DNA of 43,094 bases, taken from positions 1 to 43,094 of the IMG/VR virus record IMGVR_UViG_3300019487_000051, one strand, 5' to 3'. The stretch comes from a virus. Shown here one piece after another: positions 1,722 to 21,981 of this stretch. The notes beneath the pieces are model-generated. The model did no database searches. It saw only the letters and a program-made list of their open reading frames with translations, and was not told where the DNA came from. The stretch's first letter is position 1; the number at the start of each line of letters is the position of its first letter. A program made the position numbers and the translations under genes.

Positions 1722-2396
1722 ATGAAAGTACTCGTGATTCTTAGCGGAGGGCTTGATAGTACAGTCGCACTTGCGAGAGCGATCGATCTCCATGCACAAG
1801 TCAACGCATTGACTTTCTACTACGGGAGTAAACACAACGGGCGGGAGAACGAAGCCGCGATGGAGATTTGTAAACACTACCGCATCCCGCAACATGTGAT
1901 GAATTTGATGTTCATGAAACAGTTCAACTCAGCTCTGACTACTCGAGGGGAGGAAATCCCCCAAGGACATTACAGTGCGGAGAACATGTCCCGCACAGTT
2001 GTTCCGGGAAGGAATGCTATCCTGCTTAGTGTCGCTGCCGGATGGGCGGTAAACATCGGAGCACAGGAAATTTGGTACGGAGCACACGTCGGAGACCATC
2101 CGATTTACCCCGATTGCCGCTACGAATTCATCCACGCAATGCACAAAGCTCTGCTCCTCGGATATGGAGTAGACCTCCACGCTCCGTTTGTTGAAATGAC
2201 CAAAACACAAATCGTGAGAGAGGGGCGCGAGTTACACGTTCCGATACATCTAACTTACAGTTGCTACAACGGAGATGAGGAACACTGTGGCCGGTGCGGG
2301 ACTTGTGTCGAACGTGCAGAAGCATTCGCGTTAGCTGACGTTCCCGACCCAACAGTCTACACCGACCCAGAGTTCTGGAAGGGAGTGTGCCATTGA
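1722..2396 (+). CDS. queC: 7-cyano-7-deazaguanine (preQ0) synthase QueC
   Basis: PP-loop VLSGGLDSTVAL near the N-terminus. C-terminal Zn-site cysteines SCYNGDEEHCGRCGTCVERAEAF. RBS AAGGAGG upstream. Confidence 0.9.
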   Translation: MKVLVILSGGLDSTVALARAIDLHAQVNALTFYYGSKHNGRENEAAMEICKHYRIPQHVMNLMFMKQFNSALTTRGEEIPQGHYSAENMSRTVVPGRNAILLSVAAGWAVNIGAQEIWYGAHVGDHPIYPDCRYEFIHAMHKALLLGYGVDLHAPFVEMTKTQIVREGRELHVPIHLTYSCYNGDEEHCGRCGTCVERAEAFALADVPDPTVYTDPEFWKGVCH

Positions 2397-2965
2397 ACGA
2401 GAGAGATCTAAACCCAGATAAAGTTTCCACCGCTACTCGAGAGCTGCTACTCGCGTTAGGAGTAGACCTCACCGATCGGAATTTCAAAGACACTCCCGCA
2501 CGCGTCGCTCGGTTTATGATGGAGCTTTTTCGATCCAAACGATCGGACATGACAGCGTTCACGGAGGAGTACGATGGCATGATTATTCTCCGCGGACATG
2601 AGATGTGGACGTTGTGCCCTCACCACCTATTACCCGTTCGGATGATGGTCAGTATAGCCTACATCCCGTCACAAAGAGTTCTCGGTCTCAGCAAACTCGT
2701 TCGTTTAGTCGAACGCTTCAACACCAAACCATTGATGCAGGAGGAGATGACTCACAGCATCGCGGATTGGTTTGCCGACGGGGAGATAGAAGCCGCAGGC
2801 AGCGCGTGTTACATCACCGGCGAGCATCTCTGCATGCGGATGAGGGGGGTTAAAACCGGAGCAGATGTTGTTACCGCCGCATTTCGCGGGCAGTTACAGA
2901 AACAGAACGATCTCAAGAAAATGTTCATGGATATCGTCTGTGGACGAGAAGGGAGGAAGTTATGA
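2387..2965 (+). CDS. folE: GTP cyclohydrolase I (FolE/QueD-pathway entry enzyme)
   Basis: Signature WTLCPHHLLPV. MQEEMTH corresponds to the QERLT region. About 190 aa. GTG start overlaps the queC stop. Confidence 0.85.
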   Translation: MPLNERDLNPDKVSTATRELLLALGVDLTDRNFKDTPARVARFMMELFRSKRSDMTAFTEEYDGMIILRGHEMWTLCPHHLLPVRMMVSIAYIPSQRVLGLSKLVRLVERFNTKPLMQEEMTHSIADWFADGEIEAAGSACYITGEHLCMRMRGVKTGADVVTAAFRGQLQKQNDLKKMFMDIVCGREGRKL

Positions 2966-3017: not shown

Positions 3018-4694
3018 ATGTATTATCACTGTCCCGATTGCGGAGCAGATATGTTACCAAAACCCGAAGCATGTAACGGATGTCCGATGAGAAACATCGG
3101 GTTGGGGTTCGTACCTGGTCGCGGGACGCTGTCGCCCGATTTTATCGGTGTCGCACAAGCTCCCGGCAGCGACGAGGTGCATTCAGACGATCCTCAACCC
3201 CTCATCGGACCGAGCGGTAGGGTATTCTCTCGAGCGTTGTATGAGAACAATGTCACTCGGCAGAAAGTCTACCTGACAAATGTTTTGAAATGTCAACCAC
3301 CGAAGGACAAGCTACCGAGCAAAGACATCTTGCTGCCGGCTGTTGCGCATTGCACGAACGCGTATCTACGAAAAGAACTCGCAGTTGTCAAAGGTCCGGT
3401 GCTTGCCATCGGTGGGCTGTCACTGTACCACATGACAGGCAAAGAGCTACCGATCCTGACCTATCGTGGCTACCCGTATTGGAGCGAACGCTACTCTCGA
3501 TGGACAATCGGCACCATCCACCCCGCGATGGTGTTCAAGACTGCTACCGGCTCGGCAGATAAGAGCCCACCCGCGGCCATCATCCCAGCTCTGCAAAGCG
3601 ACATCCGGAAGATAAACCGTTTCACCAAACCAGCAGACATCGAAGAGAACATCGACCCGAGCGAAAGCGACATCCGGTTGGTTGTCGAGCAAGCTCTTGA
3701 CCAACGACTCGTCGCTGTCGACATCGAAACCCCCGGATTTGAAAAAGACGAAGACGAGGTATTCACCAGTGCTAAAGATATCCATCTCATCGGAGTGGCC
3801 ACAAGAGACAACCATGCAATCGTATGCTCCCCGTCGCAGTTTGAACTTCTCCGGCCCATCTTCGACCCACATAATCACGTGGTACAGATCGGGCAGAATT
3901 ATGTATCTGACCTACTCAGCCTATCGGCACGATACGGTTTCTCCGTTTCGGATACGCACGTTGAAGATATCATGCTTCAGTTTCACGCTCTATATAGCGA
4001 CTTACCGAAGCGGTTAGCTGTCATCGCGAGTTTTTTCACCACCCTACCGTATTGGAAACTAAGCAAAAAAGACTGGAAGGCAGGAGTTAGCCCCGAACGG
4101 TTCATGCGTTACAACGCGAAGGACACCATTGCGAACTGGATGTGTTTCCATGCCATGCAACCGTTGATCGAACAAAACGGGCTGACAGACACCTATCAAG
4201 CCATGCTCGGTTTGGTACCTTTCGCTGTGCAAATGTACGAGCTTGGCATCAACACCGATCAGACAACAGCTATGCGCATCCAGCTTGAACACGCGCAAGT
4301 CAACGATGCAATAGTCAAAGCGCTGACAACAGCCCTGCCGGGGTTCAACATTGAAAGCCCGATACAAGTTATGGAGCTGCTGTACGATCGGATGGGATTG
4401 CCGGAGCAGACGCACAAAGTCAAAGGCGTGGTCAAGCGGACAAGTAACGATGAGGCTTTGACCGCTCTGCAGCGGATGTTTCCACAAAACAAAACCCTCG
4501 GTTTGATTCAAACCTATCGAGGGAACAAAAAGATCATCGAGTATATCGACCATCCCGCACGTGGACGCGTTCATAGCTCGTTGAAGATCACTGGTACAGC
4601 TAGTGGGAGGTTAGAAAACCGAGAGCCGAATTTGATGCAACAACCGGATATCGTTCGCGTCGCCTACATCGCGGATGAGGAGTGTGACAGATGA
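3018..4694 (+). CDS. Family A DNA polymerase, N-terminal part: family-4 UDG-like domain, 3'-5' exonuclease and thumb. It ends just before motif A.
   Basis: N-terminal Cys cluster CPDCG...CNGCP, then GVAQAPGSDEV and GTIHPAMV (UDG family 4 motifs). VAVDIETPG (ExoI). TGTASGRLENREPNLMQQP followed by VRVAYIADEE, the conserved Pol I stretch that directly precedes motif A. Confidence 0.85.
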   Translation: MYYHCPDCGADMLPKPEACNGCPMRNIGLGFVPGRGTLSPDFIGVAQAPGSDEVHSDDPQPLIGPSGRVFSRALYENNVTRQKVYLTNVLKCQPPKDKLPSKDILLPAVAHCTNAYLRKELAVVKGPVLAIGGLSLYHMTGKELPILTYRGYPYWSERYSRWTIGTIHPAMVFKTATGSADKSPPAAIIPALQSDIRKINRFTKPADIEENIDPSESDIRLVVEQALDQRLVAVDIETPGFEKDEDEVFTSAKDIHLIGVATRDNHAIVCSPSQFELLRPIFDPHNHVVQIGQNYVSDLLSLSARYGFSVSDTHVEDIMLQFHALYSDLPKRLAVIASFFTTLPYWKLSKKDWKAGVSPERFMRYNAKDTIANWMCFHAMQPLIEQNGLTDTYQAMLGLVPFAVQMYELGINTDQTTAMRIQLEHAQVNDAIVKALTTALPGFNIESPIQVMELLYDRMGLPEQTHKVKGVVKRTSNDEALTALQRMFPQNKTLGLIQTYRGNKKIIEYIDHPARGRVHSSLKITGTASGRLENREPNLMQQPDIVRVAYIADEECDR

Positions 4695-5032
4695 ACGCGT
4701 TAGACGCTTTGCAGCGTATGACCAGCAACGACATTATCGTCGGGACGATAATCGAACTAGACGGTAACAAATACACCGTTATCCGTCTGTCCAAAGCGGT
4801 GGCTATAACGAAGGAGAAAGAACCCGGCTGGTCTGGAGCACAGAACAACCTATCGCAATTTCTTGTCAGACAAGTCACTCCGGAAGAGTCTGTGTTTTAC
4901 TTTTCCACCGAGGAGTGGGCAGTGCTACGTAAGAAGGAGAACGGAACGGTCTTCAGCTTGAACCTACTATGGAAAGTCCAAACCATCGACGAGTTTGTTA
5001 AGGAGAAAGAAAATGTACAACGGACAGAGTAA
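4691..5032 (+). CDS. Hypothetical protein inside the polymerase split
   Basis: 113-aa ORF. Its ATG overlaps the stop of polymerase part 1 (ATGA). No motif recognised. Confidence 0.4.
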   Translation: MNALDALQRMTSNDIIVGTIIELDGNKYTVIRLSKAVAITKEKEPGWSGAQNNLSQFLVRQVTPEESVFYFSTEEWAVLRKKENGTVFSLNLLWKVQTIDEFVKEKENVQRTE

Positions 5033-5201
5033 CAAACCAACTCGTTACGCAGTGCACTGTCCAGTTCATGGGCAGGTCTACCTGACAGAAGACGAACGCT
5101 TTCGCCAGCTTAACAGCTCAGACGATTGCTGGTCCTGTCCTGTGACGACCGATCCTGACGATTTCGGTCTTTGCGGGCGCGAAAAAGGGAGAGTGAGATA
5201 A
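5013..5201 (+). CDS. Small zinc-ribbon-like protein inside the polymerase split
   Basis: ATG 5013 is preceded by AAGGAG at 7-nt spacing. HCPVHG...CWSCP metal-binding pattern. The ORF-track start at 4995 is less likely. Confidence 0.4.
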   Translation: MYNGQSNKPTRYAVHCPVHGQVYLTEDERFRQLNSSDDCWSCPVTTDPDDFGLCGREKGRVR

Positions 5202-5331
5202 TGTACTGGATACCCAGGAAAGTGTGCTGAGTGCAAGACTATCTTCTATGAAGGCGATGCTCGCAAAACTTACAGTCAAATGCCACGGCGGCGCGATTGT
5301 TCTCGGGATTACATTGTGGGTGAAACATTAA

Positions 5332-6153
5332 ATGCCACTGCTATACGCGGATTTCAACCAAATCGAGTTATGGATAGTCGCACTAGAAGCGAACGATGAA
5401 CCCTTCCTTGCCATCCACGCGAGAGACGAATACGTTCACGGAGCAGCTTACGAAGATGTGTTCAAACCAGAACTGTTTTTCGAACCCGGCAAACCGAGAC
5501 GTAAAGAATTCCGTCTGCCAACGGTCACGCATGAAAAACTCAATCGAGCGAAGGCGATACCTCACGGGTTCAACTACAACCGTAAAGGCGCGTCTGTCGC
5601 AAAAGAACACAACTGGACTGAGAGGGAAGGTCGAACCTACGAAGACAAATACTTCACCGTTCATTGGGCAATTCGTGACTGGCATAAGAAAATCGACAAC
5701 GAGGTGTCAAGAGATGGACTGCTACGAAATAAATTCGGTCGGATCAGAAGATATCCGATTAAAGATAACAGTGTCTACAGCTACAAACCTCAGTCCGGAG
5801 CAGCAGACATACTTATACGTGCTATCCCGCGTATATTTGCGCGGCTTACTCTACCATCTCGAATCCTCCTTCCAGTTCACGACTCACTGCTCGTTCAGTC
5901 GCCGTGGGTTAAAATGGAACGAGACGCTCACGTTCTGGTTGAGGAGATGGAGAGACCGATTCCTCAACACAACAACTTCGTCTTCGGGACGGAGCTAAAA
6001 ATCGGTATGAACTGGAAAGACGCTGACGAGGGCAACCCTCTAGGACTAACCACCGTTACATTAGCCAATCTCCCGGAGGCAGTGCGTGAACTCGAAAAAC
6101 GATATCGTAGCAGTCAAACGGCTTATTCGATTGCTACGCGGGGAGAAGTTTGA
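5332..6153 (+). CDS. Family A DNA polymerase, C-terminal part (palm and fingers, motifs A, B, C)
   Basis: Begins MPLLYADFNQIELW (motif A, DYSQIELR-type). RAKAIPHGFNY (motif B). LLPVHDSLL (motif C). Confidence 0.85.
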   Translation: MPLLYADFNQIELWIVALEANDEPFLAIHARDEYVHGAAYEDVFKPELFFEPGKPRRKEFRLPTVTHEKLNRAKAIPHGFNYNRKGASVAKEHNWTEREGRTYEDKYFTVHWAIRDWHKKIDNEVSRDGLLRNKFGRIRRYPIKDNSVYSYKPQSGAADILIRAIPRIFARLTLPSRILLPVHDSLLVQSPWVKMERDAHVLVEEMERPIPQHNNFVFGTELKIGMNWKDADEGNPLGLTTVTLANLPEAVRELEKRYRSSQTAYSIATRGEV

Positions 6154-7516
6154 GACAACTAGTCCGGTGTTTGAAGCGACTCTTCGCTTTCTCCGACAGT
6201 TCCCGATCGACCTAGACGAAGACGATCGTACGCTGTTCAAACAAACAATCTGCACAAGCTTCGGTATAACCGAGGCTCAGTTGAAAACCTACACAGGTGG
6301 AGCGGAAGCTGACATGAACCTCGACAAGGCAGAACGGATACTCACCAGCGAGGATGCTTTCCGGCAGTGTTACCCTCCAAACGGTTTCTGTGCTCGATAC
6401 GACGAACTAACCTCCCACGTCGAGGCTCCGATCACCTTCCATATAATGTGTTTGTTAGCTATTCTCGGGAGTGCTCTTCGTCGTAGAACGTGGATGGAAC
6501 GTGGCTTCTACGATCTCTACCCCAACCTCTCCGTTGTTTTGATAGCCCCCGCTGGAGCGGCGAAGAAAGGTGCTGCGGTCTCTATCGCGGAAGGGTTGCT
6601 ACCTCCGGATCTAGTCAACGTTCTTGCGGAGAAGTTAACCCCGGAAGCTATCATCGAAGCGCTTGCGGAGGAGGAAGCTAACAGCGGTAAAGCCGCCGGG
6701 TTGCTCTGGGCTCCAGAACTCAGCGTGTTGCTCGGTAAACAAAAATACAACGATGGGATGATACCGTTGCTGAACGAACTGCTCGAATGTAAGAAGAAAT
6801 GGAAATCCCGAACAATCTCCCGAGGTGAAACCGAGCTCGGTGACATCTACGTCTCTCTCATCGGAGCGAGCACACCTGACCTCTTCGGGAGCAGTATGTC
6901 CAGCGCCGCACTCGACGGCGGGTTTATGTCTCGGCTGTTCCTCGTTGTCGAAGAGGGTAGTGATCGATCGTTCAGCGAGCCGAAAGTCGACAAGCTCGAA
7001 CTTCGTCGGATGCAGGGAGACATCTTCCGGATATTGCAGAAGCTCGAAGGGGAGATTAAACTATCCAAAGCCGCATACGATCTCTACGACAAATGGTACA
7101 ATACCCCTGACACTCTATCTGAGTTCCACGTCAAACTCGCTCCGTATTTGGAACGGAAGCCGGATCATTGCCTACGTATAGCCATCCTCTATCACTTCCT
7201 TGAACACACCGATCTGGTTATCTGTGACAGCTGCATAGCCTACGCAATCAAAACGATCGAGTTTCTGGAGAAACGCCTCCCGATCGCCTTTAACCGGTTG
7301 TTTGAATCTCGCGATGGAGAAGACGTCTCGTTGATATTGAAAGTCCTCCAACGTAATGGAGGGATGCTCGATCATGACAAGCTCATGGCGAAAACCAAAC
7401 ACCGTATGAGTTTCCAAAACCTGAAAGGACATCTAAGCACCCTTCGAGAGAGCGGTGAGATTAAGGAAGTTCACACCACTCTTGAACACTACTACATCCT
7501 CCGAAGGAAGGATTAA
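6086..7516 (+). CDS. Putative replication ATPase/helicase-like protein with C-terminal winged-helix (DUF3987-like)
   Basis: VVLIAPAGAAKKGAAV (atypical P-loop) and RLFLVVEEGSD (Walker B-like). C-terminal LKGHLSTLRESGEIKEV helix-turn-wing pattern. Lies after the polymerase. GTG start is uncertain and overlaps the polymerase by 68 nt. Confidence 0.35.
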   Translation: MNSKNDIVAVKRLIRLLRGEKFETTSPVFEATLRFLRQFPIDLDEDDRTLFKQTICTSFGITEAQLKTYTGGAEADMNLDKAERILTSEDAFRQCYPPNGFCARYDELTSHVEAPITFHIMCLLAILGSALRRRTWMERGFYDLYPNLSVVLIAPAGAAKKGAAVSIAEGLLPPDLVNVLAEKLTPEAIIEALAEEEANSGKAAGLLWAPELSVLLGKQKYNDGMIPLLNELLECKKKWKSRTISRGETELGDIYVSLIGASTPDLFGSSMSSAALDGGFMSRLFLVVEEGSDRSFSEPKVDKLELRRMQGDIFRILQKLEGEIKLSKAAYDLYDKWYNTPDTLSEFHVKLAPYLERKPDHCLRIAILYHFLEHTDLVICDSCIAYAIKTIEFLEKRLPIAFNRLFESRDGEDVSLILKVLQRNGGMLDHDKLMAKTKHRMSFQNLKGHLSTLRESGEIKEVHTTLEHYYILRRKD

Positions 7517-7518
7517 CT

Positions 7519-7896
7519 ATGTCTGCAAACGAAACCTGGGTTGATTTAGCAAAGACACTCGGTTACGAAACCGAACCGGATATGTGGAAAGACCTATACA
7601 ACATCAAAGACTGGTCGATAGGTAAGATCGCTATCCGGTTGGGGTATAGTAACACCGTTATTCGTCGGCGAATGACTTTGTGCGGGATCCAAATGCGAGG
7701 CAAAGGCGGACCGAACAACAAAGGCAAGGGGAGGAAGATTCTAGACCGCTTCGATCTAGACTTCGTGATGAACGCTCCAGTGAAAACTGTACTTGATAAA
7801 GCGAAAGTGACAGAAAGTACTCTGTGGAGGTATAGACGTGAAGCGAGGAAACAACAGCAACAGCAACCAGTTGCAGATCTGCCTAATCAGCCCTGA
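7519..7896 (+). CDS. Helix-turn-helix DNA-binding protein
   Basis: WSIGKIAIRLGYSNTVIRRRM is an HTH-like segment. Basic region, Gln-rich tail. Confidence 0.45.
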   Translation: MSANETWVDLAKTLGYETEPDMWKDLYNIKDWSIGKIAIRLGYSNTVIRRRMTLCGIQMRGKGGPNNKGKGRKILDRFDLDFVMNAPVKTVLDKAKVTESTLWRYRREARKQQQQQPVADLPNQP

Positions 7897-8632
7897 GAAG
7901 GGTCTCGATACATTCAGTTCATTGACTAGACGGCAATTCGCTCTCGCTCATATCGCGAGGAAAAGTCCGGGGTATTGTGACTATTTCAAACGAATGCGTG
8001 AGAGAGGGGATTATATCATCCTCGACAACGGAGCTTGGGAGCTTGGGGTTAGTATTAGCAACGAAGAGCTAAGCGACCTAGCCGAGCAATGTTATGCGAA
8101 CTGTATCATCCTCCCAGACAGTCCTCATCATAGTTGGAAGACCACAGCAAGTATGACTCTACAATACCTGCTAACATTCGCCAAACCTGGTTATGATTAT
8201 ATGTACGTTCCCAGCGCAGGGGATCGTGATCTCGAAGACTACATCGAAGCGTATAAGTGGGCGAGCACGATCGACCAAATCACCCATATCGGGATTTCTC
8301 GTATGACCGGGAATAAGATCTGGCCGGAGGAGAGTAAAGCTTGGTCGAGAGTTAGACTGGTGCTCGAGATCAAACGTCTTGGTTGTTGGAATAATACAAA
8401 ACGTCACCACGCTCTCGGATGGTTAGGTAGTCTAGACGAATTCCCTTACCTTGACTACCTCGGGTTCGAGAGCCTCGACTTCGGTGGAGCGGTCTGGCGC
8501 GGATACTGCGGTTACAGTATCTTCGACAAAGACTGGCCGGACACGGACGTCGATTTCTTTGCCGAACTCGTCCCAGCGAATCGATCGATCGTTGATCGGA
8601 ACGTCCGGGAAGCGTTGAGTGTACTAGACTAA
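7838..8632 (+). CDS. dpdA: Small TIM-barrel/TGT-fold protein, candidate DpdA-type DNA guanine transglycosylase
   Basis: The order of strand-end motifs parallels tRNA-guanine transglycosylases: YIILDNGAWE (cf. TDSGGFQ), CIILPDSP, YMYVPSAG, HIGISRM, RHHALGWLGS, ESLDFGGAVWRG (cf. DMFDCVxPTRxARxG). Embedded among que genes. The true start is uncertain; an alternative start may lie after 7896. Confidence 0.5.
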   Translation: MKRGNNSNSNQLQICLISPEKGLDTFSSLTRRQFALAHIARKSPGYCDYFKRMRERGDYIILDNGAWELGVSISNEELSDLAEQCYANCIILPDSPHHSWKTTASMTLQYLLTFAKPGYDYMYVPSAGDRDLEDYIEAYKWASTIDQITHIGISRMTGNKIWPEESKAWSRVRLVLEIKRLGCWNNTKRHHALGWLGSLDEFPYLDYLGFESLDFGGAVWRGYCGYSIFDKDWPDTDVDFFAELVPANRSIVDRNVREALSVLD

Positions 8633-8634
8633 CT

Positions 8635-8901
8635 ATGCAACGAAACAGTAAAAAAACTCACTGTCCGAGAGGACATGCATACGACGAGAGGAATACCGGA
8701 ATAGGTCAAACAGCTACTGGGATATACCGGCGCTGTCGAACTTGCGACAGGAGGAGAAAGGAGAAATGGAAACAATGGAAACAATGGAAACAGGATACCC
8801 AATTGCGGAGGAGTTTGATAGCATCCAAGGCGAGGGACATTGGACGGGAACAGCTATGCGGTTCATCCGATTCGCCGGCTGCAACGTTGGAAGGATGCTG
8901 A
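8635..8901 (+). CDS. Small zinc-finger protein (CxxGH...CxxC)
   Basis: HCPRGHAYDERN...YRRCRTCDRRRKEK. The C-terminal part overlaps the queE start and carries the KWKQWKQWKQ repeat. Confidence 0.45.
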   Translation: MQRNSKKTHCPRGHAYDERNTGIGQTATGIYRRCRTCDRRRKEKWKQWKQWKQDTQLRRSLIASKARDIGREQLCGSSDSPAATLEGC

Positions 8902-9464
8902 GAGAGTCTTCAATCGGAGTACAATCAGTCAACGGAGAGCCTTACCACGCGATGTGCACGTTGTGGGACGGTCGAACGTTCGGCTGTGATACAAACTACC
9001 AAAAGCACAGCGCGAAATCTCCCTTTCAACTACTCAGCGCTGCCTGGCAAAGCCACATTTGCCTGACCGGAGGGGAGCCTTTACTTCACGATCTCAGCAT
9101 GCTGATCAGGAAAGCAACGAGGCAAGGGAAGATGATCCATCTCGAAACAAGCGGGACGCGTTATCCGGAATGGCTGCGTGAGGACCCACTCCGCCACCAA
9201 ATCTGGATCAGTGTCTCCCCAAAAGAAGACTGTCTCCCGGAGATGATTTCTCTCGCGGATGAGATTAAGATCCTAGTCGACGAACGGTTTGATGAGAGAC
9301 AGCTACTCGTTAGCTTCCTCAATAACAACAACGTCTACCTTCAACCAGTTAACTACGAGATGACGGTGAATAGGGAAAATCTCGAACGGTGCTTACAGCT
9401 CCAAAAACGCTTCCCGGAATTCCGCATTAGCTGTCAGTTACACAAATTCATGAACGTGAGGTGA
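8766..9464 (+). CDS. queE: 7-carboxy-7-deazaguanine synthase QueE (radical SAM), non-canonical cluster spacing
   Basis: EEFDSIQGEGHWTGTAMRFIRFAGCNV, FGCDTNY and LTGGEPLLH. ATG 8766 with AGGAGG about 10 nt upstream is preferred over TTG 8742. Confidence 0.8.
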   Translation: METMETMETGYPIAEEFDSIQGEGHWTGTAMRFIRFAGCNVGRMLRESSIGVQSVNGEPYHAMCTLWDGRTFGCDTNYQKHSAKSPFQLLSAAWQSHICLTGGEPLLHDLSMLIRKATRQGKMIHLETSGTRYPEWLREDPLRHQIWISVSPKEDCLPEMISLADEIKILVDERFDERQLLVSFLNNNNVYLQPVNYEMTVNRENLERCLQLQKRFPEFRISCQLHKFMNVR

Positions 9465-9970
9465 AAATGAAAACGTCGCAATCGGACTGTCAGTGTACTT
9501 GGGATGATACACACCAATACATCGTTTACAAAGATCCTATCTGCCTGGTTCATAACCCTGTCATCTCAGTGAAAAGCATGGATGCTACTCCCGACCCAGG
9601 TACGGAGACTTTCTCTAGCGGAGCGACGCGAAGCAAACACCCCGAGTTGCAAAAACACCATCTCGTTGCAGAACACGGTCAGCGCCGCCTTGCCTGTCGT
9701 TTCGGCCTTGGAGATACTAACTACCCTCCATACAACTGGAGAAAGGGCATACCGTTCGGTAATCTACTCGATCACCTCGAAGAGCATCTTCTCCGCTTGC
9801 GAACGAAACTTCGAGAGAACAAAAGCTACCGTCCAGATCTTGACGACGACGAAGCTGCTATCGCCTGGGCGGTGTTTGCGATTATGCAGTTTCAGTGTGA
9901 AGGACGAAGTGACGAACTAAACGATGTTTATTGGAACAAAGACAAGGAGGAACGTACCGATGCATCCTGA
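9461..9970 (+). CDS. DUF5664-type (dATP/dGTP diphosphohydrolase N-domain, MazG-like all-alpha) nucleotide pyrophosphohydrolase with N-terminal CxC...CxxH motif
   Basis: FSSGATRSK...RRLACRFGLGDTNYPPYNWRKGIPFGNLLDHLEEHLLRL...DDDEAAIAWAVFAIMQF matches the FxxGAxR / KYxxxNWxKG / RHL pattern of this phage family. GTG 9461 or ATG 9467 start, coupled to the queE stop. Confidence 0.5.
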   Translation: MKMKTSQSDCQCTWDDTHQYIVYKDPICLVHNPVISVKSMDATPDPGTETFSSGATRSKHPELQKHHLVAEHGQRRLACRFGLGDTNYPPYNWRKGIPFGNLLDHLEEHLLRLRTKLRENKSYRPDLDDDEAAIAWAVFAIMQFQCEGRSDELNDVYWNKDKEERTDAS

Positions 9971-10265
9971 TATCGATCTACTTAGGTCAATGGATCAACA
10001 ATTCATCCAACCCGAGAGCACGCGTAACTACGGTAAGTGGATGGGTTTTCAACGCCACGTTAACGAAGCTGGTAAAACGCTTTTGATAGCCCTCCCGGAA
10101 CCCAGTCCGGAACGCACCACCGCTTTCCGCAAGCTTCAAGAAGCTCTCTTCTGGGGGAACCTCGCCGAACAACGTTACAATCCCGAGCAGTATCCGGTGT
10201 ATGAACCTAAAAAACTCGAACCGAACGAACCGAACGAACCGAAGCCGGAAAGGAAGGCCGAATGA
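9960..10265 (+). CDS. Hypothetical protein (EPNEPNEPK repeat near C-terminus)
   Basis: ATG 9960 with AAGGAGG 10 nt upstream is preferred to the ORF-track start at 9924. Stop overlaps the next ATG (ATGA). Confidence 0.45.
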   Translation: MHPDIDLLRSMDQQFIQPESTRNYGKWMGFQRHVNEAGKTLLIALPEPSPERTTAFRKLQEALFWGNLAEQRYNPEQYPVYEPKKLEPNEPNEPKPERKAE

Positions 10266-10540: not shown

Positions 10541-10806
10541 ACCTCACACCGAGAAGAATAGGCAAATTCGGTATCTCAGCTGAGTTGCTCGTTACCGTTG
10601 GCTGGGAAAAGCTCGGCCTGGTTTTGGGTCGAACAGGTATGCTTGTTGTTGAAGCTAACTATTGCTTCGACACCCGAGCAATCGAATACACCGCTGTCTG
10701 CCCGATGTTCGATGTAATCCCAGAAGGTGTTTCCGCTCCAACATATCGAGTGGAGATTGAACATCAAGACCACACTCTAAGCATCTACTTCCGGAGGGTA
10801 TCGTGA
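10537..10806 (+). CDS. Hypothetical protein
   Basis: 89-aa ORF coupled on both sides (ATGA at 10537; GTG of queD overlaps its stop). Confidence 0.45.
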   Translation: MNLTPRRIGKFGISAELLVTVGWEKLGLVLGRTGMLVVEANYCFDTRAIEYTAVCPMFDVIPEGVSAPTYRVEIEHQDHTLSIYFRRVS

Positions 10807-11264
10807 AAATCAGTAAGCAGTTCAGCTTCGAGGCAAGTCACATGCTCCCTCGTCATCCTGGTAAGTGCTCTCGCCTCCACGGACATAGCTGGACGGGGCA
10901 TGTAACTATTATCGGAGATGTCAACCCCTCCACCGGGTTTGTAATGGACTACTACCACCTCGGAGAGATCATCCGTAAACGGATATTCGATCCTCTCGAC
11001 CACAAACACCTCGGAGTGCATTACTCTACCGTAGGTGCAAAGGAAGAGTTCTTAGTTCCAGACACTTGGAGAGCACCGATCGATTTCTACCCAAGCAGCG
11101 AAAGACTTCTTCGCTGGATCGTTCAGATGCTCAAAGTCGACCTGCCAAACCTCTACGAGGTTGTTTTACACGAGACTTGCACCAGTGCAGCTATTTGGAC
11201 GTTAAATGACGTCACCGAACCGGATTATGGTTCAGGCATACACATGGACGCTTTCGATCGATAG
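10803..11264 (+). CDS. queD: 6-carboxy-5,6,7,8-tetrahydropterin synthase QueD
   Basis: FSFEASHMLPRHPGKCSRLHGHSW plus VMDYYHL (PTPS/QueD signature). GTG start. Confidence 0.85.
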   Translation: MKISKQFSFEASHMLPRHPGKCSRLHGHSWTGHVTIIGDVNPSTGFVMDYYHLGEIIRKRIFDPLDHKHLGVHYSTVGAKEEFLVPDTWRAPIDFYPSSERLLRWIVQMLKVDLPNLYEVVLHETCTSAAIWTLNDVTEPDYGSGIHMDAFDR

Positions 11265-11275
11265 GAGAAACACAA

Positions 11276-11605
11276 ATGAAACGTTTGCGACCGGCTACAA
11301 CAAAACTGCTTATCGCCCGACAGGATTTCAACTACAAAGGGTTGATTGTCGTTCCCGATGCATCGAAAACCAAACCAACCGTTGGTAATATCATCGCCGT
11401 CGGTCCGGATGTGACGATGTACAAGGAAGGTCAGCGTGTACTATTCACCCGCTTCAGTGGAATTGTCTTCACGGTGATTGATCGTTCTCACTCTCGAGCA
11501 GATCCCAACACAGGAGAGGTGGAGTTCCTAATAATCGACCAGACAGAAGTGTATGCGGAGATTAAAGAGGTGAGTCAGGGCGCCGCAGAAGCGTTCAATG
11601 ATTAA
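11276..11605 (+). CDS. groES: GroES-like co-chaperonin (Cpn10 family)
   Basis: LRPATTKLLIARQ...GLIVVPDASKTKPTVGNIIAVGPDV...GQRVLFTRFSG...EFLIIDQTEVYAEI follows the Cpn10 pattern, including the mobile-loop region. Confidence 0.65.
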   Translation: MKRLRPATTKLLIARQDFNYKGLIVVPDASKTKPTVGNIIAVGPDVTMYKEGQRVLFTRFSGIVFTVIDRSHSRADPNTGEVEFLIIDQTEVYAEIKEVSQGAAEAFND

Positions 11606-12625: not shown

Positions 12626-15600
12626 TTAAAACTTCTCTGGTTTCACCGGTCTAAACCCGAGCAGAGATAGTAACGGGTTATCGCTATCCAACGCTCGGTA
12701 TATGCTCCTCATCTGTTGATACCCCGGAACGAATTGAAACGGGAGTTGGACAAGTCTATGCCTCGCCATACTAGCTTCCACTCCTTCCCCACTCACCCTC
12801 ATCAAATCCTGCATAGTGCTGGTCCAAACACTACCGTTGTACTCTGCAGGGGAGGTCCAAATCCACCTCGAAACATCCGCTCCCATACTTTGGAAAAACA
12901 ACTGCATGGCTTCGTTAACCGCAAACCACCGACCTATCCACGCTACGCGGTGAGTGATAGACCCTCTCGTTGCTCCTCGGATCATGTATTCTATGAACTG
13001 CTCCGGCCACTGACCGTACATACCAAGCACCCGCCCCATCTGACTCCGGATCAGCTGCGGAGCGTTGCCTTTTCTAATCGGCCACTGCGTCGCTTCAACA
13101 ATATACCGGCTAAGCAATCCTGCCGCCTCTTCAATCGGTACGGTTGAGTCTAACGCCTTCAACGTCGCGTTCTTTGCCATACCTTCCTGCAGTATCTCCG
13201 CTCCGCTGTCTTGGAGGAAGTTGTCCAAGTTCTTATCCTTCCTCAACTGCGCAATCGCGAGCTTCGCTCGGTCAAAACTCCCGTTGAATGTTACCACCCT
13301 CCCGAAGTTGTTACCAACGTGGGTGAAATACAAACTCCTCTGCAACATTCCTGGTATATCAGCCAGGTCACCACCTTCCGGCACCGGCGCAACATTATCC
13401 GGGATGGTAGCGGCATACTTCTCCGCCAGCCTCCATCCATCTCCAGTCAAAGCCTTCCCGAAGCCATGTCCGAACCATCTCTCTCCGAGATGCGGATAAG
13501 CTGTTAGGAAGCTTTGCATACCGTCTCTCACCGCCAACGCGGGGCGGAAGCCTAACGAGCTGCTGTATTGTAGCAAGACGAACTTCCTCACGCTGTCTTG
13601 CGACAACCCCATCTTGTCAAACCCCGGGATTTTCGAGAGATACTTATCCATCCAATTCGTCAACGATTGGTAGACAAAATCCGGTTCACCATACATATGC
13701 TGCATGTACTTCGCCACCGGCTCTTTCAACTCCGCTGGGAGCGATCTCCAAGTAGTCTTAGCATTGTCCCACACCGGACCGAGGAATTTCTCTCTCGCTC
13801 CAATCCGAGTGTACTGCATCAACTGCAGTACGGCATCGGTCTCCCTACTCGCTTCCGCCGCTTCATCTTTCACTCTCTCATGCTTCGCGAAGAAGTCAAC
13901 CTCTCTCGGTAGCGATTGCTGCATGAACGGATCGGCCTCGTTCGCTTTTGCTCGGTTCCCGGCTTGCCTCATAAACTCCGCTTGCTCCATCCGAGGAGCG
14001 TAATCTTCAAGGAAAGGCGCACTATCTCCGATGTTGAAAGTCTTAAACAACTGATCATACCTCTCCCGCAGCTTCGCCACGTTATCTAAATCCTCCCGTG
14101 TGAAACTGTTTTTATGTGACACCTCCGCTTTAGCATCCGTTCCCTTCGCCTGCAACCAAGCTCGGTAAGCTATCCTCTTCTCTGGAGTGGTAGTGCCTAA
14201 CATCTCATAAAGCCCTTTATACTCGTTAGACAAAAACCTCTCTAGTTGCATCTGCCCACTGTCAAACGGGAGGTAGATATTATCAAACACCGGTAGTGAA
14301 GTCTGCTGCTGCACACTGTTAAACCAATCTCGAGAGTTTCTAACATACGCAGTCACCGGAGTCAACCCAACATCTACCTTCTCCGTTTGCTTCTTCCCTG
14401 TTAAGAACTCTCTCCGAGAAAGTCCTTCACCCCTCTTCGCCATGAAGCTCGGACCGATCACCCCACTCCTCGGTGGACCCGCCGGCCCCTCCGGCAACGC
14501 GTTAGGTTGCTCCCACCCTTGTATCTTCAACTCCCGTTCCAATGCACTAGTCAGTTCGGGATAGAATACCACATCTCCCATCCCAACATCAAACACTCGC
14601 GCGATGTCTCTAAAAGTGTTGTAGACAAGAAACTCACCATCGACGTTGATCGTCATCCACCGACCGTCCGGACCTACCCGAACCAACGGAGTGTCGAGTA
14701 TCATCTCACCGTAGCGTTGCAACGACCAACTAGGATCCGTTCGGGCTTTCACTCCTGCGAGATAGCTCTGTGCCCACTTATCAAAATAACTCTGCGTGGC
14801 GCTAAAGCTAATCGGATCGATAGACGTTCCTTTCGTAACACGATTAAACGCCCAACGACCGGTTTCTCTCGCTAGTTCGAGTACATGAGAGAGGTCTTTA
14901 TCCAACCGTACAAGTTCTACAATCTCTCGTTGCCCTACTTTAGTCTCCGCCCGTTTGAAAGCCGTCCACAAACGAACAAGGATCTCTTCGTTCGCCTCAT
15001 TCGGCTTGGCGTAAAGATCTGGATACTTCTCCATCAACGAGGTAACCATACCGTTCCAAGCTTCCCTCAACGGCTCACCAGTTGGTCCGGTAGTTTCTAA
15101 CAACCGACTGAAAGTATCTACATCTCCCGGGAGGACGGCTGCGTTAGCGGCATGCACGTCTCTCTGCAACATCGGGAGTTGAGAGTGTAACAAGTGCCCG
15201 ATTTCGTGAACCATCGTCTCGGCAGGTTCGTAATCTCCTACCGCTATCTGCTCCAACGCTCCAGGGATTGTTGCATGATGCAACCCTGCAATACTAGCTG
15301 GTAACTTTGCTCCTCTCGCGTAGGTAACAACAAGTCCTCCAGGGAGACTGACTCGTTTAACACTGCCAGTTTCAAACGAAGCCATCGCTTGTTTTACCAA
15401 GTCCTCTCCCTCCGGCCCGGCTCCTTCAACCGCCATCGCTTCAAACTCCGGAATCAACGCAGCGGAGTGTACTCTCATCCCGTTTTCAGTCAACTCAACC
15501 ATATGTTGTTGTTGTGGGCTGAGAAACTCCTTTGCCGTTTCTAACCTCTCTCGTCTCTCACTCTCCATTGAAGTGCCGTAAGCTTCCAACCCTCGCATCT

Positions 15601-18010
15601 GCGATTCCCTACTAGTCTGCGCAGCGGCTAGCTGAGCTTTCTGTTGTTCAGTGAGGTTGTACCCTTCAACTGTTATGGTCTGACTATACGCTCGAGATTC
15701 CTCCGGCGAAACCCCAAACACCTGCGGGACTGGTTTAGGTACTTCCGGCTCCACTACATGAGTCCACTCCGGCAAGCCTGTTCGGATTGCTTGCTCGAGC
15801 TGTTTTAAAGTCGCCTGCATTGCAGTGGTCTGACTCTTCGGAATCAACCCTTGTTCGAACTGTTGCTTCAACATCTCATAGCGTTGAACAATCCCTGGTT
15901 TGGCGTTCTTAAACCTCTCCATCGTATCACGGTATTTGACATCCAAATCCTCTCCCGGAGCGACAGAGAAATTCGCGTTCAAGCCCTTGATTTTATACTG
16001 CTCCAGCCCGAGCATATTACCTTGATAAACCACATCAGGATAACCCTCTGGACTCTGTCCGATCTCCAACGGGAGCTGGATCTCTCCAACTGTACTCGTC
16101 CCGGCAACTACCTCAGCAGACAACAACGGCGGAGGTTCTCCCTTCGCCTTCTCCATCTGCTGTATCTCCTGCAGCTGTTCGGGAGTGAATCCCGCTTCCT
16201 GCATCGAAACCTCTGTCGGTCTTACAACCTCCTGCGCGACTTGCACCTGCTTCATTCCATGCTCGAACCCTTCACGAGTGAGTTCCCATCCACCTTCAAC
16301 GGTTTCGGCAAGCCCTCTCTCTAAAGCCTCGCCTGCTGGTATACCAAGAGTAGCTTCCACTCCCTCAGCGGTTGTAATCATCCTTGGGTTTTTGCGTCTC
16401 TCCAACCCGGGATGTTTCTCCAACAACACCGCTCGTTCTTCCGGTGAAGTTCGATAGTCTTGAAATTTCTTCTGTATATCCTCAGGTGCTACTGCAACAG
16501 TCGGAACGGTCTCTACTGCGCCTGCGCCTGCGGCAGCTGCTTCCGCTCTCACCTCCGTTGTCTGAGGCTTCTCGCCTTTAATCACCTGTACAGCACTCGG
16601 CTGTAACACAACCTGTGTACCTTCCGCTCGAGCATCCAGTCCCAACGCTCTTAACCTCTCCTCCGCAATCTGAGCCTCCCTCTCATTCCTAGCATCCAAC
16701 GTTGTTACCGCTTCCGGTTGGAACAACTTCCCCAACGCTCCGTAATATCTTGTCAACGCTCCACTCGATCCTTCAATATGTGCTACCACCTGACCGGAGT
16801 CGATAACCTGTTTAACAAACAAATCAACAGCCTCGCCTTGTGCTCCATACGGCATCAGTATCTGCTGACCGTTAGCGAGGTACAACTTCGTCCCGCCGTT
16901 CATCCTCGCGACCGAGCGGTCCACTACCGTCATCGCCTCTGGAGCGGTTCGTAAATTTCCCAAACTATTCTCATACTCCTGCCAAAGCTGCACCCTCTCA
17001 TCCGGCGTCATCTTCTGCAACACTTCAACAAGTTGCCGATTCTGCTTCGCCGAGTTTCCACTCGACCAAGCCCCTTCAATCCGTGCAGCGGGATCGGGAG
17101 TTACATCTCTCGTCGTTTTCGGTGCGTTCCTCCACTTCAACCAGTTCAAAAACGGGGCACTAGCTTTATCAGCTGCTCCTTGAGCCAGACGCTCAAGAGT
17201 GCCAAGAGTAGCACCAGCAACAAGACCATGCACACCTTCAGAAAGCTTTTGCCCTGGTTCGGCGACCATGCTGTTGTACGCTCCGAGATGCACTGCTCCT
17301 TGAACTGCTGAGGTAACGTAGCTCGGTTTGACACTGATAACATCTCCGATTTTTTCGACACTGTATGACCCCCATCTCGGCACAACCGCTCCGATCATTT
17401 TGAACGCCGGAGCGCTACCGATAATATCCCCAACGAGATGAACAGCTGGCTCCTCTATCCCCGGCACGGTCTCTCTTGCATACCGTTGCTGAGCTTTCAT
17501 CTGTCGAGCGGATAACGCATCACTCAACGAGGTAGTCATCTCCGCGACGTTTCTCCCGGCTTTCAAATACCTCTCTCGATCCTTCTCACTCACCAAACCA
17601 GCAATACTCGATGTCAACGCCGTAGCAGGAACGTTTAACGCTCCCACCGTTGCTAACGCGGTCTTGCCAACCTGCGTCGCACCTTCCATAAACAACTCCG
17701 CACCCTTGCTGTATTTCTGCGGCCGAGCAGTGCGTTGCATAAACTCCGAGAAGTACGGCATAGCCTGCTCCGGTGAACCGATTTGCGGAGCGACGTGGTC
17801 TTTGAAATACTGCGCTTGCGCGTCTTGATAAACACTCATCGGGTCGTCGTCTCTCAACCCGATTTTGAACTTAAACTGGTTCCAGGTGAACGGATGAGCG
17901 ATGTCATACGCTTTAGCTTGCTCTGAAGCTTGTACGTCTTCCGGTTCTGGAGCTTTCTCAAACCCCGGGAAGCCCGCCCCTCCATACCGTTCTATAGTCT
18001 CCTCTGGCAT
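12626..18010 (-). CDS. Giant (1794 aa) virion/ejection-type polyvalent protein with HEXXH metallopeptidase motif
   Basis: Uninterrupted 5.4-kb ORF at the distal end of the structural operon. MVHEIGHLLHS is encoded at 15194-15208 (about residues 935-939). No other motif recognised. Confidence 0.55.
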   Translation of the reverse strand: MPEETIERYGGAGFPGFEKAPEPEDVQASEQAKAYDIAHPFTWNQFKFKIGLRDDDPMSVYQDAQAQYFKDHVAPQIGSPEQAMPYFSEFMQRTARPQKYSKGAELFMEGATQVGKTALATVGALNVPATALTSSIAGLVSEKDRERYLKAGRNVAEMTTSLSDALSARQMKAQQRYARETVPGIEEPAVHLVGDIIGSAPAFKMIGAVVPRWGSYSVEKIGDVISVKPSYVTSAVQGAVHLGAYNSMVAEPGQKLSEGVHGLVAGATLGTLERLAQGAADKASAPFLNWLKWRNAPKTTRDVTPDPAARIEGAWSSGNSAKQNRQLVEVLQKMTPDERVQLWQEYENSLGNLRTAPEAMTVVDRSVARMNGGTKLYLANGQQILMPYGAQGEAVDLFVKQVIDSGQVVAHIEGSSGALTRYYGALGKLFQPEAVTTLDARNEREAQIAEERLRALGLDARAEGTQVVLQPSAVQVIKGEKPQTTEVRAEAAAAGAGAVETVPTVAVAPEDIQKKFQDYRTSPEERAVLLEKHPGLERRKNPRMITTAEGVEATLGIPAGEALERGLAETVEGGWELTREGFEHGMKQVQVAQEVVRPTEVSMQEAGFTPEQLQEIQQMEKAKGEPPPLLSAEVVAGTSTVGEIQLPLEIGQSPEGYPDVVYQGNMLGLEQYKIKGLNANFSVAPGEDLDVKYRDTMERFKNAKPGIVQRYEMLKQQFEQGLIPKSQTTAMQATLKQLEQAIRTGLPEWTHVVEPEVPKPVPQVFGVSPEESRAYSQTITVEGYNLTEQQKAQLAAAQTSRESQMRGLEAYGTSMESERRERLETAKEFLSPQQQHMVELTENGMRVHSAALIPEFEAMAVEGAGPEGEDLVKQAMASFETGSVKRVSLPGGLVVTYARGAKLPASIAGLHHATIPGALEQIAVGDYEPAETMVHEIGHLLHSQLPMLQRDVHAANAAVLPGDVDTFSRLLETTGPTGEPLREAWNGMVTSLMEKYPDLYAKPNEANEEILVRLWTAFKRAETKVGQREIVELVRLDKDLSHVLELARETGRWAFNRVTKGTSIDPISFSATQSYFDKWAQSYLAGVKARTDPSWSLQRYGEMILDTPLVRVGPDGRWMTINVDGEFLVYNTFRDIARVFDVGMGDVVFYPELTSALERELKIQGWEQPNALPEGPAGPPRSGVIGPSFMAKRGEGLSRREFLTGKKQTEKVDVGLTPVTAYVRNSRDWFNSVQQQTSLPVFDNIYLPFDSGQMQLERFLSNEYKGLYEMLGTTTPEKRIAYRAWLQAKGTDAKAEVSHKNSFTREDLDNVAKLRERYDQLFKTFNIGDSAPFLEDYAPRMEQAEFMRQAGNRAKANEADPFMQQSLPREVDFFAKHERVKDEAAEASRETDAVLQLMQYTRIGAREKFLGPVWDNAKTTWRSLPAELKEPVAKYMQHMYGEPDFVYQSLTNWMDKYLSKIPGFDKMGLSQDSVRKFVLLQYSSSLGFRPALAVRDGMQSFLTAYPHLGERWFGHGFGKALTGDGWRLAEKYAATIPDNVAPVPEGGDLADIPGMLQRSLYFTHVGNNFGRVVTFNGSFDRAKLAIAQLRKDKNLDNFLQDSGAEILQEGMAKNATLKALDSTVPIEEAAGLLSRYIVEATQWPIRKGNAPQLIRSQMGRVLGMYGQWPEQFIEYMIRGATRGSITHRVAWIGRWFAVNEAMQLFFQSMGADVSRWIWTSPAEYNGSVWTSTMQDLMRVSGEGVEASMARHRLVQLPFQFVPGYQQMRSIYRALDSDNPLLSLLGFRPVKPEKF

Positions 18011-20833: not shown

Positions 20834-21316
20834 TTAAACCTCCTTAATATACCACGTCTCTAGAGGTTGATACCCTCTTCGAAGATACAACTCTTCAACT
20901 CCCGCTGGGCTGGATTTCAACAACGCCAAGATAGTAGCCTGGCAAGCAACGTCTCTTGCCCAACGTTCGAATTCTACGATCAAAATCTCTCCCGCTCCAG
21001 ATCTACGAAAATCTGGGTGAACGAACCAAAACATTTCTTGCGCTTGTACTCTACCACTCGCGCTTTCAGGAAACCTCACTCCTCCAATCGCTGCAATGAC
21101 AAGCCCATCTTCCTCGAGAAGGAAAATCACTCCTATGTTGTTGTTGATAAACATCGCCCAGGTGCCGCTAAAGCTTTCTGGGTTAAACTTTCCCGGCAAC
21201 CCAGCTTCGGTGTAAAACATCTCACCGAGAGGTAACAACCGTTCGAGGTCTGCCACTCTCGCTTGTCTGATAACCCTGACCTTTTGCCCCGTTTGTTCTT
21301 TCACTTGTACGTTCAT
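20834..21316 (-). CDS. GNAT family N-acetyltransferase
   Basis: FWFVHPDFRRSGAGEILIVEFERWARD (acetyl-CoA binding R/QxxGxG/A motif). ATG 21316 overlaps the upstream stop (ATGA), so the ORF-track start at 21364 is unlikely. Confidence 0.6.
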   Translation of the reverse strand: MNVQVKEQTGQKVRVIRQARVADLERLLPLGEMFYTEAGLPGKFNPESFSGTWAMFINNNIGVIFLLEEDGLVIAAIGGVRFPESASGRVQAQEMFWFVHPDFRRSGAGEILIVEFERWARDVACQATILALLKSSPAGVEELYLRRGYQPLETWYIKEV

Positions 21317-21981
21317 TTTGTTGGTGTACTCCTTGTTTGCAGATACTCTACAGGACTGTCCCAATCCTGCATCTCGATGTAGCTTTTCAAATTCCGATTC
21401 CGGACCATCTCCAACGGGCTGAGGATGTTTTTGAGAACGTTGTTCGCTGCGTCGTAGTCGAGATGTTCACACAAGCCTCTCCATACCGCATGCCATTCCA
21501 TCACCTCGATCCACTCCGCGGGAAGCAACACCGTTGTGTTTTCCAACGAGGTTACGTCAGGATAAACCCATCCGAAAAGCTTTAACCGGTAGGTGTTCAG
21601 ATTCGGTATTGGATCGAGGAAGAATTTATCATTCCACCTGGCATACCGCACCGGCACTTGTGCGATGTTGAAATTCGCTTTGATAATCTCCCGGAAGCTA
21701 GTTTTCTTCAACCGTCTAGTTAACGGGGTGCCGTTTGAGTTCACGATTAAAGAGTCTTCCAGCGCCAGCGCCAGAACCGCTCGAATCCCATCCGGGAGAG
21801 GATACTCCCTCTGTCCAGCGACTGTTAACTGCGTGGCGTATCGTTGGAGCTCGACGAAAGGATACCTCGCTGCGATGTCTAGATAAGCCTGGATCAACCA
21901 ATTCACCGCGCTAGTTGTGATATCGGTATCCGCTCGGTTCATCCGTTTGATAACTGTCTGGACGCTATCGTTGATAATCAT
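21313..21981 (-). CDS. Virion structural protein (adaptor/tail-proximal), function unassigned
   Basis: 222-aa ORF coupled on both sides within the tail block. Confidence 0.35.
   Translation of the reverse strand: MIINDSVQTVIKRMNRADTDITTSAVNWLIQAYLDIAARYPFVELQRYATQLTVAGQREYPLPDGIRAVLALALEDSLIVNSNGTPLTRRLKKTSFREIIKANFNIAQVPVRYARWNDKFFLDPIPNLNTYRLKLFGWVYPDVTSLENTTVLLPAEWIEVMEWHAVWRGLCEHLDYDAANNVLKNILSPLEMVRNRNLKSYIEMQDWDSPVEYLQTRSTPTK

Follow-up and report, generated by a model that had tools for sequence, protein, structure and literature searches.

The viral sequence IMGVR_UViG_3300019487_000051 (IMG/VR; positions 1 to 43,094, the whole of which is hereafter called the window) raises the question of whether a protein much shorter than a tRNA-guanine transglycosylase (TGT), and devoid of its zinc site, can be an enzyme that inserts 7-deazaguanines into DNA. 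The protein in question is encoded by an open reading frame (ORF) at 7838..8632 on the + strand (264 amino acids from a GTG start codon), and a sequence-only reading of the window had proposed that it belongs to a minimal or divergent subfamily of the DNA guanine transglycosylase DpdA. From its homology (BLASTP), its predicted fold, a minimal TGT-like (beta/alpha)8 barrel, and its conserved aspartates, we identify the gene as a divergent member of DpdA3, a family already published in 2023, so the proposal was borne out. We further consider it probable that the product exchanges guanine in DNA for 7-cyano-7-deazaguanine (preQ0) by a covalent mechanism of the TGT type.

The assignment to DpdA3 was first approached through homologues. 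A search by word index through 5.8 billion proteins returned metagenomic homologues with 75% and 37% identity to the window protein, and an exhaustive HMMER search using the window protein and those two homologues retrieved 2,776 cluster representatives at an E value of ≤1e-3 (787 at ≤1e-10). Because of these two homologues and the thousands of relatives found in profile searches, ORF 7838-8632 is judged to be a real gene. Twenty records were matched in a tblastn search of GenBank phages, including Cellulophaga phage phiST (coding sequence CGPG_00065) as well as Flavobacterium phage vB_FspM_immuto, in which the matching coding sequence is annotated as "DNA guanine transglycosylase, DpdA." These are the two proteins on which the DpdA3 subfamily was defined (Cui/Hutinet et al. 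2023, PMC10516641). Comparison with the published phage DpdA subfamilies, which the sequence-only reading had put forward as a check, thus led to the DpdA3 founders, with BLASTP E values of 1e-11 for phiST CGPG_00065 (27% identity) and 2e-16 for the immuto DpdA (28% identity).

A profile built from eight proteins, including the founders and the window protein, recovered 3,282 proteins. Nearly all of the best 120 of these 3,282 matches were 262 to 271 amino acids long, and a few among the profile matches listed carried the JGI name "queuine/archaeosine tRNA-ribosyltransferase." The only annotation match of the window protein itself was PHROG 20335 ("unknown function"). Pfam matches of individual relatives were weak (DUF6610 in 5 of 124 sequences, with a best E value of 0.027; DpdA in 2; TGT in 1), and only models of the TGT clan matched more than one family member. 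Within a set of 86 DpdA3 loci (the window, five GenBank phage loci, and 80 IMG/VR loci; a further 80 metagenome loci were fetched in addition), the proteins formed 13 clusters at 50% identity, one of which consisted of the window protein alone. Its branch is sparsely sampled: the best relatives are 75% and 37% identical, the others are about 35% identical or less, and the 75% relative sits on a short metagenomic contig.

Structure prediction placed the protein in the TGT fold. A first AlphaFold2 (AF2) run on three sequences gave a predicted local distance difference test score (pLDDT) of 64, and the Foldseek list for that model mixed TGT with a generic barrel (homocitrate synthase). A second model was computed from an alignment of 124 diverse relatives (alignment A3), which also served for the conservation analysis and for hhalign; it reached a pLDDT of 95.1 and a predicted template modeling (TM) score of 0.91. 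The chain forms eight beta/alpha units followed by a C-terminal helix, with disorder at residues 1 to 10 only. All 50 of the 50 matches listed by Foldseek against the PDB for this second model were tRNA-guanine transglycosylases (E values from 1.4e-6 to 6e-6; query-normalized TM scores [TMq] of 0.50 to 0.59). Among the predicted viral structures of BFVD, the top match was an unnamed 422-amino-acid protein (E value, 5e-18; TMq, 0.85), followed by a 259-amino-acid phiST protein, which has the length of CGPG_00065 (E value, 1.3e-17; TM scores, 0.81/0.83; root mean square deviation, 2.9 Å). Further down came phage proteins annotated as queuine tRNA-ribosyltransferases, as well as a Vibrio nt-1 protein. 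The structural comparison suggested by the sequence-only reading therefore pointed to TGT and not to an unrelated TIM-barrel family.

Conservation within the family coincides with the TGT active site. Three residues were invariant in the 124 sequences of A3, namely, D63 (codon 8024-8026), R171, and D214 (codon 8477-8479), and D94 (codon 8117-8119) was among those conserved in at least 90% of them, together with P19, L36, Y46, N64, E68, P93, H191, G194, E201, and N255. Profile-profile alignment of A3 with a seven-sequence bacterial TGT profile gave an E value of 7.4e-4 and a probability of 26%, for a template that was shallow and used without secondary structure; with Escherichia coli Tgt alone, the probability was 6.9%. 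The alignment paired LPD94 with FD143EC, HALG with YLMG, and SLD214 with MFD264C of E. coli TGT, and at a relaxed threshold it extended over the full length and paired YIILD63NGAWE with PILTD89SGGFQ. By these pairings, the counterparts of D63, D94, and D214 in the Zymomonas mobilis enzyme are D102, D156, and D280, which correspond to D89, D143, and D264 of E. coli. In Z. mobilis TGT, D102 and D156 belong to the purine pocket and D280 is the nucleophile (PMC5699537). The two motif alignments originally drawn by eye, through YIILDNGAWE (residues 59 to 68) and ESLDFGGAVWRG (residues 211 to 222), were thus recovered independently as D63/D89 and D214/D264.

The zinc site of TGT has no counterpart in the window protein. 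Its cysteines lie at positions 15, 47, 85, 89, 183, and 224, so that no CxCxxC motif occurs anywhere in the 264 residues, in agreement with the original observation; after D214, C224 is the sole cysteine, and there is no histidine beyond H191. The segment that had been proposed as the zinc-motif counterpart, LGCWNNTKRHHALGW (residues 181 to 195), was misplaced: it lies upstream of the catalytic aspartate, where its partner is the TGT stretch that ends in RYLMGVG. The tail of the relaxed alignment, in which confidence is low, sets the CDCYTC zinc loop of TGT opposite DTDVDFF (residues 235 to 241) and H333-N334 opposite R254-N255; the window residues facing the CxCxxC...H site in this alignment (approximately 235 to 255) include neither cysteine nor histidine. 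The CxCxxC motif was found in none of 268 retrieved DpdA3 family members, whose median length was 265 amino acids. Small size and loss of the zinc ligands are therefore traits of the family, and the description of the protein as unusually small, which is correct relative to TGT, does not apply within DpdA3. In sum, the gene shares with DpdA3 the homology to the founders, the TGT-like barrel, the retained aspartates, and a viral location beside 7-deazaguanine genes. It had no hidden Markov model (HMM) match and no CxCxxC...H site that would place it with canonical TGT, bDpdA, or DpdA1 and DpdA2 (PF01702 and PF23859), and no PF20314 match that would place it with DpdA4 (DUF6610).

The start codon can be narrowed down. 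The dpdA3 ORF overlaps the upstream gene of a small helix-turn-helix (HTH) protein (7519..7896, + strand) by 59 nucleotides; this overlap and the maximum length of 264 residues were as originally reported, and the start had been called uncertain. The first conserved strand (ICLISP) begins at residue 14; therefore, GTG 7838 and TTG 7871 are the only possible starts. In relatives, the start is mostly an ATG homologous to position 7871, preceded by GGAGG or GGAG at position -12 or -13. In the window, a Shine-Dalgarno sequence, GGAGG (7826..7830, + strand), lies within the HTH gene, 7 nucleotides before GTG 7838 and at the same distance from that start as in the relatives, and no comparable sequence precedes TTG 7871. 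An N-terminal extension of approximately 10 residues is also present in the two closest homologues. We rejected TTG 7871, despite its position homologous to the ATG of relatives, because GGAGG precedes GTG 7838, and the sequence supports the latter as the start. Two candidate starts do exist, but the choice between them is less uncertain than had been supposed.

The surrounding genome encodes a full preQ0 pathway. From an exact 123-bp direct repeat (positions 1-123 and 42972-43094), the window can be recognized as the complete genome of a phage, about 42,971 bp long and either terminally redundant or circularly assembled; its GC content is 51%. Four genes of 7-deazaguanine synthesis lie on the + strand: queC (7-cyano-7-deazaguanine synthase; 1722..2396; PF06508, 5.7e-64; TIGR00364, 1.7e-59, above the cutoff), whose domain stands alone with no amidotransferase fusion; folE (GTP cyclohydrolase I; 2387..2965; PF01227, 2.5e-45); queE (7-carboxy-7-deazaguanine synthase; 8742..9464; PHROG QueE-like, 3.6e-26; NCBIfam QueE, 2e-22, under the curated cutoffs); and queD (6-carboxytetrahydropterin synthase; 10803..11264; PF01242, 3e-28), in which the CxxxHGH motif, as defined in PMC10516641, is intact (CSRLHGH). 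The probable start of queE is ATG 8766, as judged from GGAGGAG at 8750-8756. That start region (8766-8792) consists of a 9-nucleotide tandem repeat, ATGGAAACA, present three times and reading MET-MET-MET and KQWKQWKQ in two frames. Searches of the window with local HMMs made from phage seeds detected no QueF, DpdL, or deoxynucleoside monophosphate (dNMP) kinase. Since these are absent and the pathway ends at QueC, the predicted free base is preQ0.

The mechanism that we favor would run as follows. FolE, QueD, QueE, and QueC would together turn GTP into preQ0. A deoxyguanosine of the phage DNA would be attacked at C1' by D214 of DpdA3. Guanine would depart, and preQ0, bound in a pocket made up of D63 and D94, would attack the covalent intermediate. 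The product would be dPreQ0 in DNA, or dADG if the end product is the amide and not the nitrile, and the modified phage genome would be shielded from restriction enzymes. Compared with TGT, the enzyme would have kept the barrel and the active-site aspartates but shed the insertions as well as the Cys3His zinc subdomain. Family, fold, conserved residues, context, and start were read directly from the analyses above; from them, we infer the DNA substrate, the inserted base, and the extent of replacement. Guanine is completely replaced in CP220, phiST, and immuto, all of them DpdA3 phages (PMC10516641), and this, together with the location of the gene in a replication block, suggests that DpdA3 acts at or near replication.

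Several points weigh against this mechanism. No DpdA3 has a demonstrated activity, and the tests of DpdA3 in E. coli by the authors who defined the subfamily failed; the same authors judged DpdA3 "unlikely to insert preQ0" on the basis of phiST and Campylobacter phages (PMC10516641). QueC is, however, present in the window phage and in many of its relatives. The window protein had no match in Pfam (E value, ≤1) or NCBIfam, whether to TGT, DpdA, or DUF6610, and searches of PDB sequences, run from the protein alone and from profiles, retrieved no TGT; the PDB sequence matches that did appear (a designed TIM barrel, morphine dehydrogenase, and PipY) were dismissed as being at chance level. The low hhalign probability obtained with the TGT profile is a further point against, and that alignment is not decisive alone. 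Finally, if the DNA substrate has to be built from dGTP, the neighboring gene for a MazZ-like (d)GTP/dATP diphosphohydrolase would seem to work against that end.

That neighbor is central to an alternative that we regard as unlikely, in which DpdA3 acts before replication. The enzyme would act on a mononucleotide and swap its base (dGMP + preQ0 -> dPreQ0-MP + guanine) or work strictly at the fork. On the nucleotide-level scheme, the MazZ-like enzyme would convert dGTP to dGMP, thereby removing the competitor and providing the substrate, and kinases and then the family A DNA polymerase (PolA) would carry the product into DNA with 100% replacement. The gene encodes a MazZ-2/DUF550-like dATP/dGTP diphosphohydrolase domain (9461..9970, + strand; PF18909, 1.7e-6, 28.3 bits against a cutoff of 27), with a substrate preference taken from the family alone. 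It lies between queE and queD, with a GTG start codon that overlaps the stop codon of queE, an arrangement that translationally couples it to queE. In phages with Z genomes, MazZ enzymes produce dGMP from dGTP (PMC8342488). DpdA3's lack of both the zinc subdomain and the insertions of TGT is also in line with this scheme: reviews tie the zinc subdomain to dimerization and assign recognition of tRNA to the loop insertions. So are the complete replacement in DpdA3 phages, the ADG nucleoside detected in infected cells, and the failure of DpdA3 to modify DNA in E. coli (all from PMC10516641).

Gene neighborhoods add to this side of the argument. In independent DpdA3 clusters, enzymes of the deoxynucleoside triphosphate (dNTP) pool with unrelated folds are encoded beside dpdA3 or no more than one ORF away from it. 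A gene of the DCD/dUTPase fold lies just downstream of dpdA3 in loci L013 (9146-9703), L014 (8762-9403), and L015 (9053-9583), and a P-loop kinase-like gene lies upstream of it in L041 (7402-7995) and L049 (4937-5482). Near dpdA3, a dNTP-pool enzyme gene is found in L003 (8861-9406) and a weak MazG match is found in L092. Comparable genes occur in named phages: a dNMP kinase directly downstream of dpdA3 in Vibrio phage D479, a nucleoside triphosphate pyrophosphohydrolase and a thymidylate kinase near it in immuto, and a MazG/dUTPase-like gene near it in phiST. In total, dNMP-kinase-like ORFs were present in 64 of the 86 loci.

Against the nucleotide-level scheme stands the window itself, a complete genome with no dNMP or NMP kinase. 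The MazZ-like gene was considered as a conserved partner of dpdA3 in its own soil-phage lineage and rejected, since a homologue was found in only one of 172 fetched loci (L159, again directly after queE). No kinase or pyrophosphatase model was matched in 80 metagenome loci, large phages cluster nucleotide metabolism genes anyway, and two large clusters dominate the count of 64 among 86. We know of no member of the TGT superfamily that uses mononucleotides. No route for deazaguanines at the nucleotide level turned up in literature searches, and the authors who described DpdA3 prefer postreplicative insertion (PMC10516641).

Insertion into tRNA is a far less probable function. The nearest solved structures are tRNA-guanine transglycosylases, and phage genes of this kind have historically been presumed to act on tRNA, so that a queuosine- or archaeosine-type exchange in host or phage tRNAs could be envisaged. 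The protein lacks the TGT insertions and zinc subdomain, no tRNA genes were detected in the window (where Rfam likewise gave no matches), the gene is embedded in a replication module, and the DNA of DpdA3 phages is fully substituted. Equally improbable is an unrelated TIM-barrel enzyme, such as one of the hydrolase or aldolase type, that resembles TGT in its generic barrel only: the missing Pfam and NCBIfam matches, the homocitrate synthase among the matches of the first, low-confidence model, and TM scores to TGT of just 0.5 to 0.6 would allow it, but the good model retrieved TGT in every one of the 50 PDB matches listed, an independent profile alignment places the invariant residues on the catalytic and pocket aspartates of TGT, the weak Pfam matches that recur among relatives are to the TGT clan only, the phiST homologue was assigned to PF01702 by HHpred at 98.8% (PMC10516641), and dpdA3 is persistently linked to que genes. 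The fallback once offered for the gene, that the pathway had taken up some other glycosyl-transfer enzyme, was not supported.

The preferred reading, a DpdA3 that would exchange guanine in DNA, also fits the position of the gene in related genomes. Metagenome loci revealed a large lineage of soil and sediment phages, to which the window belongs, with genomes of approximately 45 to 50 kb and the gene order QueC, Sak4, QueD, QueE, FolE, PolA, DUF3987, HTH, and DpdA3. In this lineage, DpdA3 is fixed in the replication module, within the PolA/DUF3987/HTH/DpdA3 block. A full set of FolE, QueD, and QueE was present in most of the long metagenome loci and QueC in many, and most of the 166 loci fetched had que genes in the vicinity of DpdA3; a DpdL-like gene, derived from QueD, occurred in 34 of the set of 86. 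No phage nearly identical to the window was found in GenBank. An ORF of 1,794 amino acids (12626-18010, - strand) is conserved throughout the lineage.

In the window, the early block on the + strand contains, besides the que genes, a Sak4/AAA_24 gene (243-1097), the polymerase, and a DUF3987 primase/helicase-like gene (6086..7516; PF13148, 8.4e-13; PHROG DNA primase, 5.7e-22). The family A polymerase is divided between two ORFs (3018-4694 and 5332-6153), with the DNA_pol_A profile split into 17-132 and 154-381. The intervening 0.64 kb or so (4695-5331) contains two small ORFs of unknown nature (4691-5032 and the Cys-rich 4995-5201), and an Rfam search of the window matched no intron model there. 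In relatives such as L054 and L107, PolA is a single ORF of approximately 830 amino acids. In the P0003 contig, it is similarly split, into an N-terminal part of 550 amino acids and a C-terminal part of 253, with QueC between the halves. The N terminus of PolA (3018-3600) is fused to a domain resembling family 4 uracil-DNA glycosylases (PF03167, 1.3e-11; TIGR00758, 3.9e-18), and the same fusion occurs in P0003; it is worth noting in a phage in which a base is probably replaced.

The HTH gene immediately upstream of dpdA3 encodes 125 amino acids with weak HTH_50 and HTH_58 matches and an appearance of two HTH units. Homologues occupy the same position, immediately 5' of dpdA3, in 43 other loci (e.g., L103, L120, and L129), with an overlap of 0 to 104 nucleotides in most. 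Alignment of these proteins showed a conserved core and a variable 3' tail, and the 59-nucleotide overlap with dpdA3 lies in that tail. The protein may be a DNA-binding partner of DpdA3, or the arrangement may be merely conserved synteny. In L049, an independent DpdA3 locus, a weak HTH_50 match lies just downstream.

Downstream of dpdA3, an HNH-like, Cys/His-rich ORF of 88 amino acids (8635-8901, + strand; HNH endonuclease PHROGs, 2.9e-12) shares over 100 nucleotides with the start of queE, in another frame, and is probably the decayed remnant of a homing endonuclease. It was also considered as a detached zinc subdomain, an idea rejected in view of its match to HNH PHROGs and the absence of a dpdA3-adjacent homologue from the other fetched loci. 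A 113-amino-acid ORF (9924-10265) had a subthreshold match to an Acb2/Tad1 hairpin (E value, 0.0014; 19 bits against a cutoff of 27) and is possibly an antidefense nucleotide sponge. A GroES gene (11276-11605, + strand) follows queD. The - strand block is structural and lytic. Besides an SU10-like portal and adaptor, it encodes a terminase, capsid protein, and M15 peptidase, and a GNAT acetyltransferase gene lies within it beside the SU10-type adaptor. GNAT, adaptor, and portal are covered by 20834-21364, 21313-21981, and 32108-34054 (all - strand), and the SU10-like portal and adaptor suggest a podovirus of that type.

Of the DpdA subfamilies, DpdA3 is understood least, being linked to full replacement of guanine and never shown to be active in vitro or in E. 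coli. It is also missed by current Pfam, NCBIfam, and PHROG annotation; approximately 3,000 "hypothetical" proteins could now be named. The window adds a compact, complete phage of approximately 43 kb that combines DpdA3 with a full preQ0 pathway, has no QueF, DpdL, or kinase, and couples a MazZ-like gene to queE; it thereby offers a small, defined gene set for testing which base DpdA3 inserts and into which substrate. If action on the nucleotide pool or at the fork were true, it would explain 100% replacement, the loss of the zinc subdomain and insertions, and the unmodified plasmids in E. coli.

Among known systems, the cluster PurZ-MazZ-DatZ of Z-genome phages (S-2L and phiVC8) likewise includes a diphosphohydrolase domain of the MazZ-2/DUF550 type within a set of base replacement genes. 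The window has neither a PurZ-sized gene nor DatZ, and the partners are que genes and DpdA3. The DpdA families bDpdA, DpdA1, and DpdA2 (PF23859) and DpdA4 (DUF6610, PF20314), the last found in archaeal viruses, share with the window protein a proposed insertion of 7-deazaguanine into DNA and a location beside preQ0 synthesis genes, but the window protein matches neither PF23859 nor PF20314. These families modify 0.1 to 30% of guanines, whereas DpdA3 phages replace all of them (PMC10516641). With bacterial TGT (Z. mobilis and E. coli; PF01702), the protein has in common the (beta/alpha)8 barrel, three aligned aspartates, and, presumably, base exchange through a covalent intermediate. It differs in being approximately 110 residues shorter, without the insertion after the first aspartate motif and without the Cys3His zinc subdomain, in having no HMM-level match, and in its presumed substrate, which is DNA and not tRNA.

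The closest counterparts are the DpdA3 founders themselves. The window protein is just 27 to 28% identical to them and has an N-terminal extension of 11 residues and an overlapping upstream HTH gene. Their pathways also diverge: phiST has DpdL, lacks QueC, and makes dDG, and immuto, with QueF and a formyltransferase, produces fdPreQ1, whereas the window pathway stops at QueC and is predicted to yield preQ0. In sequence, fold, length (approximately 260 amino acids), lack of the zinc motif, and the same invariant aspartates, the three proteins are alike, and each is encoded beside FolE, QueD, and QueE in a replication or nucleotide metabolism region of a phage genome.

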